NCBI GenBank assembly: GCA_029558515.1
Contig: JAKQEM010000032.1
Coordinates: forward strand, 3,987 to 67,986
DNA length: 64,000 bases
From: a bacterium
Lineage (GTDB): Bacteria; Patescibacteriota; Gracilibacteria; Peribacterales; Peribacteraceae
Reading direction: 5' to 3'
Below, piece after piece: positions 31,463-57,523 of the stretch. The notes beneath the pieces were generated by a model. That model did no database searches and was not told the origin of the DNA. It saw only the letters and a program-made list of their open reading frames with translations. Each line of letters opens with the position of its first letter. Position 1 is the first letter of the stretch. The position numbers and the translations under genes are program-made.

Positions 31463-31657
31463 TCATTCCTCAAATGAGAAAAGTTCATCGATGCTCACAC
31501 CCAAAGTTGCGGCGACAGTATGTGCAAGGAGAAGGGAAGGATTGTATTTCCCCTGCTCCAAAAACACGATCGTCTCGCGACGCACCCCGACGACTTTCGC
31601 CAACTGTTCCTGCGTCATGCCTTTCCCTGTCCTGAGCTCACGGATGCGGTTATGCAT
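31463..31657 (-). CDS. XRE-family HTH regulator
   Basis: [42 protein letters not shown]. Confidence 0.9.
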
Positions 31658-32036
31658 GGAGAGAACGGCGACGAAGGATCGAAACAAGAGCGGAATAGAG
31701 CAACATGATGCCGCACGTCGAGTAGGCGAGCACGGAAGCAATGACGGCAAAATGGATGTTGCGTTCCTGATAGGCATACAGCACAAACATGCACAGCACG
31801 GCACCGAGACTGAAAATTTGGACTGTCCAGCGCGCGGCAGTGCCGCTTAGCGCATCATCACGCTCATCGGCAATCACCTCTCTGACGCGGCGGCGCAGGA
31901 AGAAAAGCACAAGAATCGCAACGATGATGGCAACAACGGGCCAGAAGTACTCCTGGCGCACAACGGACGATGAAACGAACGCAGCGAGCAGCATGACGAT
32001 GATGATGCGGGCAACGGTGTACTGCTTGAGAGACAT
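31650..32036 (-). CDS. DUF2178-like membrane protein
   Basis: 4 TM segments with a VIADERD motif; overlaps the XRE gene, a common pairing. Confidence 0.75.
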
Positions 32037-32214
32037 GGGAGATGGGGAAGATGCCCGTATGTTATATATTTCTAACACTACGGTCAAGAGCATTCGGGAG
32101 GGGCTCACAAATCAACGCCCATTTGGCAATGTACAATCTCTCGCGCCAGAAATTTGGCACCTTTTGGAGGGAGTCTGCGGGGCATAGGCACGGCAGAGTG
32201 CGTGCCATGCACAA

Positions 32215-32236
32215 GAAAAAAGCGACCGAAGCCGCT
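32215..32236 (-). terminator. Intrinsic terminator
   Basis: Minus strand AGCGGC-TTCG-GTCGCT followed by TTTTTT. Confidence 0.75.
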
Positions 32237-32266
32237 CTTTCCTTTGAGTTGGGAATGGAGAACTGC

Positions 32267-32305
32267 TTAGCAGCAGCCACCACAGCAACCGTCGCCACCG
32301 ATCAT
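32267..32305 (-). CDS. 12-aa Cys-rich micro-ORF MIGGDGCCGGCC
   Basis: Has its own promoter, a pyrimidine-rich leader and a terminator. Confidence 0.5.
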   Translation of the reverse strand: MIGGDGCCGGCC

Positions 32306-32334
32306 AGGAAAGGGAGAAAGGAAGTAGGATCGCA

Positions 32335-32387
32335 ATGATAGCAGATGCCCCTTCCCATGTCTAGCACTCTCAGAGGAAGAGTGAAAA
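32335..32387 (-). promoter_or_regulatory. sigma70 promoter overlapped by a CIRCE-like (HrcA) operator
   Basis: Minus strand TAGACA-N17-TATCAT with extended -10 TG; plus strand CTAGCACTC-N9-GAGTGAAAA at 32361-32387 (consensus TTAGCACTC-N9-GAGTGCTAA). Confidence 0.65.
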
Positions 32388-32448: not shown

Positions 32449-33276
32449 TCAGAAAGACTGCTTCCTCCCCAGTGCGTCGCGATGATACTGTCCGAATTCC
32501 GTCGTGCTGCGAACGGTTGCATTGTCCAGCACCGGCCCTTCCACGCATAACCGGATACCCGAAGGATCCACCGTGCAATTGCCGCACAGCCCGTAGCCGC
32601 ACTTCATGTACCGCTCGAAGGAAAGCTGCGCGGGGACGGCGTGCGCGTGCGCGAGATCGGAAACAGCCAGAAGCATGCGCTCGGGGCCGCAGGCGAGAAT
32701 AATGGTGGATGGTGAGTGGTGAGTGGTGAGGAACTGCGCAAGTACTTCAACGTTATATCCTGCGTGTCCCTCTGATCCGTCATCCGTGGCGATGTGGAGC
32801 GTCGTGCGTGGCAGTGCGGAGAGCTCCTCGATGTACAGCAAATGATCTTTGCTCCGCGCCCCCACGATGATATCGAGCGTGCAGCCGTCTTTCAGTGCTT
32901 CGTGCGCCGCAAAATACATGGGTGCCGCGCCGTACCCTCCCGCAACCAACATAAGATGCTGCTTCTTTTTCCATGTGTAGTGCGTTCCGAACGGCCCGCG
33001 CAAACCGATCAGATCGCCTTTTTTGCACTTCGCCAATTCCTTCGTCATATCCCCCACCGCAAAGAACGTCACACGCAGATGCTTCCCATCATCGAAGGCA
33101 ACGCTCATCGGAATCTCATCGACGCCCGGCAGCCACAGCATCACGAATTGTCCGGGCAACGCCCCCAGCGACCCGTCGAACGTGAACGTCTGCACCATAT
33201 CGGTCTCGCGTTTGGTTTCTAGGATCCGATACGTTTTGGGCAGCCGGGATTGGAGGGGAATGTTCTGCACAGGCAT
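32449..33276 (-). CDS. pyrK: Dihydroorotate dehydrogenase electron-transfer subunit
   Basis: PGQFVML, RGPFG, VAGGYGAAP, ACGPE, MKCGYGLCGNC...CVEGPV. Confidence 0.92.
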   Translation of the reverse strand: MPVQNIPLQSRLPKTYRILETKRETDMVQTFTFDGSLGALPGQFVMLWLPGVDEIPMSVAFDDGKHLRVTFFAVGDMTKELAKCKKGDLIGLRGPFGTHYTWKKKQHLMLVAGGYGAAPMYFAAHEALKDGCTLDIIVGARSKDHLLYIEELSALPRTTLHIATDDGSEGHAGYNVEVLAQFLTTHHSPSTIILACGPERMLLAVSDLAHAHAVPAQLSFERYMKCGYGLCGNCTVDPSGIRLCVEGPVLDNATVRSTTEFGQYHRDALGRKQSF

Positions 33277-33308
33277 AGAACGACAGAAGTATAGTGTGGA
33301 AACCAAGA

Positions 33309-33378: not shown

Positions 33379-33726
33379 ATGAATCCAATACGCGATCAAT
33401 CGTACACGTTCGCCATCCATATCGTACAATTCTGCACCAAACTGCAAGAGCAAAAGGAATATGTCCTCAGCAAACAATTATTACGCTCCGGCACGAGCAT
33501 AGGTGCAAATATCGAAGAGGCTCAAAAAGCCCAAACCAAGAAGGACTTTACATACAAGTGTTCTATCTCATTAAAAGAAGCTTACGAAAGCAGATATTGG
33601 CTGCGACTGCTTTGTGATAGCGGTATTGTTACCTCACACACTACAGCATCACTCCTTGAAGAAATCGACCAAATCATTCGAATCCTTTCTGCGATCGTCA
33701 AAACAGCAAGCACTCAGACGGAATGA
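33379..33726 (+). CDS. Four-helix-bundle protein (23S rRNA IVS-protein family), antisense within the pyr cluster
   Basis: LSKQLLRSGTSIGANIEEAQ...SLKEAYESRYWLRLL. Confidence 0.9.
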   Translation: MNPIRDQSYTFAIHIVQFCTKLQEQKEYVLSKQLLRSGTSIGANIEEAQKAQTKKDFTYKCSISLKEAYESRYWLRLLCDSGIVTSHTTASLLEEIDQIIRILSAIVKTASTQTE

Positions 33727-34708
33727 TCCTGTACCCAACATTGTATCTCTCAAATGACATTTTGCATTTCCCATTCTGCATTCGTCTATGCATGGAACCC
33801 GTCAATTCCGCAATGTCCTTCACTCCCTCAGCCTCACACCACTCCCTCATTTCATCGCAGACTTTCCGGAAGACATCCTGCCCCCGCGCCCACACCGCCG
33901 TGCCGATGCCGATGAGAGACGCACCCGCGAGCAGCAGTTCGATGGCATCCTCGCCCGTATGCACCCCGCCCGTCCCGATGATCGGCAGCTTCCCCTCCGT
34001 GATGGCATAGACGTCCGCGATGCACCGCACCGCGAGCGGCTTGATGGCAGGCCCCGAGATACCGCCGACTCTGTTCGCCAGAATCGGCATGCGGCTCTTC
34101 AGATCGATTGCCATGCCGGGGCCGGCGGTATTGATGACCGTGAAGCCGTCGGCACCCGCCTCGGCACAGGAACGAGCCACTTCCGCGATGGAGAGGGCAT
34201 TGGGAGAGAGTTTGATGAAAACGGGGGTCTTGCCGGACACCTGCTTCACGGCACGCGTGACCGATGCCGCATCCGCCGGACTGCAGGCGAAGGGCTTGCC
34301 GAATTCATCTTCCACGTTGGGGCAGCTGATGTTCACCTCCAGGAAATCGGGCTTCAGGGGCAGCAACGCTTCTGCGGTGAGCGCATAGTGTTCGACGGAT
34401 TCCGCAATGATATTGAGGATGAGGGGAACGGGTTGATCCGCCATGTACGACTCGATCTCCTGCCGCGCCTTCTCCGGCCCCGCATCCGGCACTCCGACGG
34501 CATTGAGCGTCCAGTGATCCGTCGAAATGATGGTGGGATTGCGGTGCCCCCGGTGCTCGTGCAGCCAGATCGACTTCGTCGTGATGGCACCCGCTCCGCC
34601 CACGGTCGCCACACGCCGCCACGAAGATGCGGTGATACCCAGAATGCCCGAAGCAAGGACGGTGGGGTTGGGGAAGGAGACGCCGAGGAGGGATTGAGTC
34701 AAATTCAC
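33698..34708 (-). CDS. pyrD: Dihydroorotate dehydrogenase (family 1B)
   Basis: LASGI, ITTKS, EVNISCPN, IKLSPN, GGISGPAIKP; GTG start at 34708; C-terminus runs through the repeat arm. Confidence 0.92.
   Translation of the reverse strand: MNLTQSLLGVSFPNPTVLASGILGITASSWRRVATVGGAGAITTKSIWLHEHRGHRNPTIISTDHWTLNAVGVPDAGPEKARQEIESYMADQPVPLILNIIAESVEHYALTAEALLPLKPDFLEVNISCPNVEDEFGKPFACSPADAASVTRAVKQVSGKTPVFIKLSPNALSIAEVARSCAEAGADGFTVINTAGPGMAIDLKSRMPILANRVGGISGPAIKPLAVRCIADVYAITEGKLPIIGTGGVHTGEDAIELLLAGASLIGIGTAVWARGQDVFRKVCDEMREWCEAEGVKDIAELTGSMHRRMQNGKCKMSFERYNVGYRIIPSECLLF
33758..33785. repeat. Heptamer tandem repeat (CATTYNN)x4, inverted right arm of cassette 1
   Basis: CATTTTG CATTTCC CATTCTG CATTCGT. 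Confidence 0.7.
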
Positions 34709-34710
34709 GA

Positions 34711-34742
34711 ATAACAGAATATCAGAGTAACAGAGTAACAGG
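34711..34742. repeat. Octamer tandem repeat (RTAACAGA-like)x4, left arm of cassette 2
   Basis: ATAACAGA ATATCAGA GTAACAGA GTAACAGG. Confidence 0.75.
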
Positions 34743-34870
34743 GAGTATTTGTTCCATGAGGAAAAAGAACGTCGATATATCGCTCGTACAAGCGCAATTT
34801 GAAACAATCACATCATAAAGAAATTCCCAAATCTCTTTTCCCTATAGCACATCAGATGGACAATTCACCA

Positions 34871-57459: not shown

Positions 57460-57488
57460 TTGCATTCCCCTGATTATCACTCTATACT
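57460..57488 (+). promoter_or_regulatory. sigma70 promoter for hsp20
   Basis: TTGCAT-N17-TATACT. Confidence 0.55.
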
Positions 57489-57523
57489 ACCGATTGATAA
57501 TTTACTTCTTTCCCCCCATTCCT

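Follow-up and report, generated by a model that had tools for sequence, protein, structure and literature searches.

A conserved Gly/Cys micro-gene with a CIRCE-like operator in Candidatus Peribacteria: a probable heat-shock unit whose peptide may work through thiols

The class I heat-shock regulon, in which the repressor HrcA acts on the CIRCE operator, is typified by the groESL and dnaK operons of Bacillus subtilis; in the established model, HrcA is deprived of GroEL when unfolded proteins tie up the chaperonin. The locus described here resembles this system in the form of CIRCE, in the overlap of the operator with a sigma-70-type promoter, in the presence of hrcA and in the location of the other sites of the genome at chaperone genes. 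It departs from it in that the target is a 12-codon gene for a Gly/Cys peptide rather than a gene for a chaperone or a protease, in that the operator lies on the -35 box rather than in the -10/start region, and in that about a fifth of the homologues of the micro-gene have another operator instead.

As for the peptide, three groups of described molecules or genes come close to it. The shortest accepted metallothioneins consist of 26 residues with 7 Cys, and CXC is the commonest metallothionein arrangement; the family-8 copper metallothioneins of fungi (Neurospora crassa, Agaricus bisporus) have precisely this size and Cys content and a CXC pattern (accessible part of PMC4755600). Like them, the micro-peptides are very small and very Cys-rich, with CxC pairs spaced by Gly/Ser and often a Lys near the end, and the combination of small size and high Cys content in CxC/CC motifs that marks metallothioneins is thus also found here. 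Unlike them, the micro-peptides are bacterial, comprise 8-31 residues with 2-6 Cys and a conserved hydrophobic residue 2, appear to be under the control of stress repressors rather than metal sensors, have no demonstrated sequence homology with metallothioneins and are at most putative metal binders. Unannotated, Cys-codon-rich and lineage-conserved short ORFs are also found in mycobacteria, i.e. the leaderless polycysteine ORFs (10.1101/834739), from which, as far as the accessible part of that paper describes them, the micro-genes differ by having a leader, their own terminator, no fixed downstream gene, a conserved peptide N-terminus and no link with cysteine metabolism. Finally, designed catalytic Cys-Xaa-Cys peptides (10.64898/2026.01.27.701630) are likewise encoded and of about ten residues, the CxC pair being their active part; according to the accessible part of that report they are engineered peptides with targeting to the ER of yeast, whereas the micro-peptides are natural, carry no targeting signal and have an activity that is putative.

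The window, a stretch of 64,000 nucleotides, is contig C35 of a Candidatus Peribacteria assembly of 1.31 Mb (55.8% GC, 99.3% complete). The micro-gene is found on the minus strand between pyrD (33698-34807) and pyrK (32449-33306), which lie upstream of it, and a gene for a DUF2178 membrane protein (31650-32108), which lies downstream, all three on the same strand. Its features are the following.

32387-32213, minus strand: whole micro-gene unit, with operator, promoter, leader, ORF and terminator in that order
32361..32387, minus strand: CIRCE-like operator (arms of 9 nt, spacer of exactly 9 nt); the promoter-proximal arm overlaps the -35 box
32358..32363, minus strand: -35 hexamer from the promoter scan, fused with the end of the operator; the same fusion of arm and -35 box is found in homologues
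32335..32343, minus strand: extended -10, i.e. TG, one base and the hexamer (32335-32340), 17 nt past the -35 box
32306..32328, minus strand: predicted 5' leader of about 23 nt, from a start site placed about 7 nt past the -10; unpaired in the centroid structure
32267..32305, minus strand: micro-ORF with ATG at 32305, 12 codons and TAA, encoding a Gly/Cys-rich peptide
32213..32244, minus strand: intrinsic terminator, a GC-rich hairpin with a four-base UUCG loop, pairing of A-tract with U-tract and a run of six U

All of these elements, re-found here on the minus strand, had been placed correctly by the first-pass annotation, and its description of the locus as a complete, independent transcription unit holds, a promoter and a terminator of its own being present. 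The promoter scores 10/12 with TG in a promoter scan that returned three promoter-like sites in 1.5 kb, where 0.7 were expected. The predicted 117-nt RNA folds with a minimum free energy of -38.5 kcal/mol (z = -2.78 versus shuffles) and leaves the leader and the start codon unpaired. The terminator has a core of 6 bp, which becomes a stem of 14 bp in the fold because the A-tract pairs with the U-tract. A hairpin followed by a T run lies downstream of 52/55 homologous genes, at a median distance of 46 nt past the stop codon; the three genes missed by this simple terminator rule include that of the window itself, whose hairpin, passed over by a simple terminator scan of the region as well, was seen by RNA folding. 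The DUF2178 gene has a promoter-like site of its own at 32059-32087, and its position next to the micro-gene is not conserved in other genomes.

The leader, in which pyrimidines make up 92% of the 25 nt before the ATG, is conserved in its pyrimidine richness among the homologues and resembles the leaders of the heat-shock genes of the genome. Leaders of this type are not restricted to such genes: genome-wide, at least 72% pyrimidine is found before the first ATG in 25% of 395 long ORFs versus 5.4% of random positions, in agreement with the earlier remark that the leader looks like those of real genes here. The frequency of G falls to 0.14-0.18 between -12 and -3 of the long ORFs of the genome, and no purine-rich ribosome-binding signal is therefore visible. 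These figures suggest that initiation in Peribacteria may not depend on a Shine-Dalgarno sequence, and the micro-gene locus would illustrate well how translation can start behind a leader poor in purines and rich in pyrimidines. Pyrimidine-rich, G-poor leaders are exemplified by those of hsp20 (57501-57522) and of the micro-gene (32306-32330).

The operator was scored against the CIRCE consensus of the literature, which it matches at 15/18 arm positions, and at 16/18 when compared with the variant of this genome. Of the CIRCE-like repeat reported earlier, the exact 9-nt spacer stands, whereas the repeat itself turns out to be a weak, degenerate copy, because its arms pair at only 6/9 positions. 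The genome does encode HrcA (PF01628 at 73.5 bits, above the cut-off), so that the proposal of a micro-ORF under a CIRCE operator in an hrcA-bearing genome, for which a look for hrcA had been recommended, agrees with what was found. In a genome-wide scan, six sites reach at least 15/18; the sixth is that of the micro-gene, while the other five precede groES-groEL, dnaK, two Clp/Hsp100 ATPase genes and hsp20, the last of these sites lying inside the window at 57474-57500. Since about 0.45 sites at this level are expected by chance in 1.31 Mb (hand arithmetic), the CIRCE of the micro-gene, taken alone, could be a chance occurrence. That it is not one follows from its conservation in the same place in 33/50 homologous genes of the family sample, in which it scores 15-18/18 and starts 68-86 nt before the ATG. 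The remaining operators in these 50 genes comprise one CIRCE at 14/18 and 11 examples of another palindrome, and five genes have neither. In the window, the operator overlaps the -35 box, a placement where bound repressor would block the promoter. A different layout, fixed and compact, is seen at four of the five chaperone-gene CIRCE sites (57474-57500 in the window; G000 C8:54577, C8:74207 and C43:69518): the 9-nt spacer of the operator houses the -10 hexamer, and 16-17 nt upstream there is a strong -35 box.

The distribution of the micro-gene was followed with searches of increasing breadth. When 40 relatives were searched at the DNA level, four of them, besides the genome itself, matched at E < 0.01; two belong to the same genus and two to different genera of the family. 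The best match, in a same-genus genome, runs from the operator through the terminator, and its ORF specifies an identical peptide despite 4 synonymous changes; a compensatory change is present in the terminator stem of the same-genus homologue. In 401 genomes of the class, a narrow start pattern was found 66 times, in 61 of the genomes, against 12 control matches (own count); on inspection of all 66, mini-genes were seen in 6/17 cases within the family and in 0/49 in other families of the class. With a sequence-only model built on the leader and the first five codons and run over 151 genomes of the family, 49/67 inspected matches held a Gly/Cys mini-gene. Homologous units are present in at least 48/151 genomes of the family and at least 32 of 84 sampled genera, a census that rests on a composition filter and is a lower bound, 875 weaker model matches lying outside it. 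Finally, an exact pattern composed of operator arm, -35 box and ORF start, applied to one genome each of 185,579 species, retrieved 18 loci, all titled Peribacteria, Peregrinibacteria or Patescibacteria, and 18/18 encode such a Gly/Cys peptide followed by a terminator. Judged by these searches, the micro-gene is real and conserved across one family of tiny-genome groundwater bacteria.

In 14/28 homologous loci (Pfam-supported count), the upstream neighbour is pyrK or pyrD, as in the window, and this neighbourhood reads as inherited synteny. On the other side the genes are diverse, including RelA/SpoT (three times), an HtrA-like protease, a protein with HMA and DsbD_2 domains, a methyltransferase, DUF4215, GT20 and DUF2178, and in four Pfam-supported loci the downstream gene is convergent (GIY-YIG twice, GT2 and GATase).

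The data set on which the description of the peptides is based consists of 55 distinct gene sequences encoding 50 distinct peptides. Their length ranges from 8 to 31 residues with a median of about 12, and Gly and Cys account for 47% and 24% of the residues; ORF length varies fourfold while the amino-acid composition is kept. The N-terminus is M-(I/F/L)-G-G in 37/50 peptides, residue 2 being Phe or Ile in 40/50. Cys residues number from 2 to 6 per peptide, with only two in 19/50, and are arranged as CxC or CC in 47/50; CxC is found in 38/50, in the specific form CGC in 27/50, and is absent from 12/50, including the peptide of the window with its two CC pairs. The genes use every one of the four Gly codons and the two Cys codons, and TAA is the stop codon in 31/36 genes of the first set.

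Several features of these genes bear on selection. In seven independent pairs of the same length, substitutions at codon positions 1/2/3 amount to 8/4/24. Three pairs with identical peptides differ by 1, 4 and 5 changes, 10 in total and all synonymous, and one of these pairs differs at 17/30 positions of the leader and at 15/20 positions past the stop codon. Because of the codon-position pattern, the exclusively synonymous changes between genes for identical peptides and the diverged flanks, the ORF is regarded as being under coding selection. By these measures the micro-ORF is under purifying selection at the level of the peptide, the pattern being the one predicted by selection on a peptide and not on RNA shape. 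The earlier proposal that the short ORF is a conserved coding gene is thus upheld by the homologues and by the codon-position pattern, and the loss of ATG, frame or Cys codons at homologous loci, named in advance as the outcome that would speak against it, is not what is seen: all three are kept. By contrast, the CCGGCC motif singled out in the window's peptide is not a conserved feature; conservation is limited to the M-(I/F)-G-G start, the richness in Gly and Cys, and the CxC/CC pairs.

In 11/50 family genes, i.e. about a fifth, CIRCE is replaced by a 9-2-9 palindrome located between the -35 and -10 boxes. In five genomes, the palindrome with up to two mismatches occurs 18 times, versus one control match; with three mismatches there are 34 matches versus 29 in the control, and only sites with up to two mismatches are counted because the three-mismatch level is not above control. 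Beyond the mini-genes, ten other Peribacteraceae genomes contain 11 such sites. The targets are four nitroreductase genes, two fused ABC exporters, one MFS transporter, one uvrA, one ABC ATPase and one MarR-family gene, the last divergent from an M28 peptidase gene and a candidate for the regulator that binds the palindrome; sites with three mismatches add a third ABC exporter and a second uvrA. For one copy with 1 mismatch (G015:C3:14052), the ORF scan found no gene start nearby. The company of nitroreductases, exporters, UvrA and MarR points to chemical stress, caused by electrophiles or xenobiotics, rather than heat, as the common denominator. The palindrome-type genomes tested keep hrcA (5/5) as well as CIRCE before dnaK (5/5), with 15-16/18 identity to the dnaK site of this genome. 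Since both are kept, it appears that the micro-gene changed regulon while the HrcA system stayed in place, which makes it an example of one gene moving between two stress regulons.

Taken together, the locus is best read as a monocistronic class I heat-shock (HrcA/CIRCE) micro-gene for a Gly/Cys peptide that would work through thiols, a reading, as to both regulation and function, to which we assign a probability of about 0.6. HrcA bound to the operator would block RNA polymerase at the -35 box; upon accumulation of unfolded proteins that occupy GroEL, HrcA repression would be relieved and the unit transcribed into an RNA of about 115 nt, which would then be translated into the Gly/Cys peptide. 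Made on the ribosome at low cost, the latter may serve as a sacrificial or buffering thiol, either by trapping thiophilic metals or electrophiles or by maintaining the thiols of proteins in the reduced state, and in some lineages the micro-gene would have moved from HrcA control to that of the other palindromic operator. The function through thiols, which we infer from composition and regulon company, is the least certain step of this scheme. A sacrificial or buffering thiol is favoured because of the CxC/CC pairs, because genes for glutathione synthesis (gshA, gshB and GCS2) were not found in the 99.3%-complete genome, and because the second regulon is of the reactive-chemical type. Several observations weigh on the other side. 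With just two Cys, as in 19/50 peptides, a single chain can probably not form a metal site; Phe or Ile at residue 2 in 40/50 is unlike metallothioneins; neither CIRCE nor the 9-2-9 palindrome is a known metal-sensor site; and the family peptides carry no export signal, which, like the two-Cys members, counts against both scavenging and redox catalysis. As for control by HrcA, the degeneracy of the window's operator, its overlap with the -35 box where four chaperone promoters have the -10 in the spacer, and the 5/50 homologues with neither operator are to be set against it. A broader proposal, which is tentative and somewhat doubtful, is that Peribacteria may make their protective thiol on the ribosome, i.e. 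that peptides of 8-31 residues, switched by HrcA or by a xenobiotic-responsive repressor, could be the smallest natural metallothionein-like or CxC redox peptides and a stand-in for a low-molecular-weight thiol.

The main rival to scavenging by the peptide is catalysis: the CxC pair, often CGC, could form a minimal thiol-disulfide oxidoreductase or isomerase that aids protein refolding or repair. The frequency of CxC (38/50) and CGC (27/50) fits such a role, as does the fact that all other CIRCE targets of the genome are chaperones, the micro-gene being in that case one more member of a regulon of folding helpers. Furthermore, designed, encoded Cys-Xaa-Cys peptides rescue the loss of protein disulfide isomerase in yeast (accessible part of 10.64898/2026.01.27.701630), and Peribacteria encode many large, very cysteine-rich extracellular proteins (accessible part of PMC4736985). 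However, peptides without an export signal would stay in a reducing cytoplasm, where disulfide isomerization is unexpected, and the 12/50 peptides without CxC, that of the window with its two CC pairs among them, would lack the catalytic motif; redox catalysis is therefore considered unlikely, if worth keeping in mind. The Cys-rich composition, together with the shortness, conservation and own promoter of the gene and its presence in two copies in some genomes, would also be compatible with a RiPP-like precursor that a maturase encoded elsewhere turns into a modified peptide or a cofactor. This idea, already put forward in the first-pass annotation, finds no counterpart in the flanks of the 28 loci examined, where no conserved neighbouring modifying enzyme, maturase or transporter was found; the peptides show no leader/core organization, with members down to 8 residues, and the five longer ones scanned match no family, which makes a RiPP-like precursor quite unlikely.

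The two other alternatives place the function in the RNA rather than in a finished peptide. A stress-induced small RNA of about 115 nt, either with an incidental ORF or with a dual function, would account for the own promoter and terminator and for a fold more stable than shuffles (z = -2.78). The fold energy, however, is mostly that of the terminator, the ORF ranges from 8 to 31 codons at constant composition, and Rfam yields no match in the window at the gathering score, the best E-value in the region being 0.36. Substitutions with a period of three, and synonymous-only changes in the identical-peptide pairs, are likewise not those of a small RNA; in particular, the 8/4/24 pattern contradicts the earlier suggestion of a pure sRNA, and an RNA-level function of either kind is very unlikely, though a second role of the RNA beside the coding one is conceivable. 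The succession of a run of Cys codons and a terminator recalls, instead, a sensory leader ORF, in which ribosome pausing at Cys/Gly codons would determine whether the terminator is passed and the next gene transcribed; polycysteine short ORFs do act as cysteine-responsive attenuators in mycobacteria (accessible part of 10.1101/834739). Such a role is largely refuted by the convergent neighbours, and is to be regarded as highly improbable: the downstream genes vary between genomes and are convergent in four cases, no cysteine-metabolism gene is found among the neighbours, the DUF2178 gene of the window has its own promoter-like site, and the fold offers no pairing that would rival the terminator. 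A leader precedes the ORF, which is not so in mycobacteria, and codon sensing leaves the conserved N-terminal residues unexplained. A polycysteine attenuator, the published system that comes nearest, was accordingly rejected as a candidate, the genes having their own terminator in 52/55 cases and variable, in four cases convergent, genes downstream.

The favoured assignment to a thiol-active heat-shock peptide has no precedent in the resources consulted. Five members of 24-31 residues have no counterpart in Pfam or NCBIfam, metallothionein families included, even at E up to 10; the same five longer members are absent from about 15 billion predicted proteins on exact look-up, and the ESM Atlas returned no usable match. 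A HMMER search with a 31-residue member against 1.84 billion representatives produced one match, a repetitive protein of 1182 residues, which was taken as a composition match and set aside. In the literature on CIRCE/HrcA small ORFs, polycysteine ORFs, thiols of the candidate phyla radiation and metallothioneins of HrcA regulons, supplements aside, a description of the family was not found, and where the accessible part of the Peribacteria genome paper (PMC4736985) speaks of cysteine-rich proteins, these are large and extracellular. The micro-gene is thus listed in no annotation, family model or paper found; gene callers drop ORFs of such length. It is nonetheless present in at least 32 genera, as part of one of the few recognizable regulons in a never-cultured lineage of the candidate phyla radiation. 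If the peptide does work through thiols, a reduced genome would have swapped the biosynthetic pathway of a thiol buffer for a gene of 39 bases, metallothionein-like or catalytic peptides would be known at a smaller size than hitherto, and the designed CxC catalysts would have a natural counterpart.

Copy number varies within the family. The genome of the window holds a single copy, and a scan of this genome for Gly/Cys short ORFs disclosed no other with a pyrimidine leader; a second short frame rich in Gly, Cys and His (G000 C38:89813-89828, minus strand; 17-22 codons) is present without such a leader, and possibly lies inside a longer gene. In some genomes of the family the micro-gene is present twice: G468 has a tandem pair separated by 130 nt, of which the first alone has CIRCE, and G307 has two copies at a distance of 4 kb, both with CIRCE. 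In G304, a member of a different family of this class, in-frame TGA codons break up a DnaJ-like stretch rich in Gly and Phe, in keeping with the reading of TGA as sense in families of the class other than that of the window.
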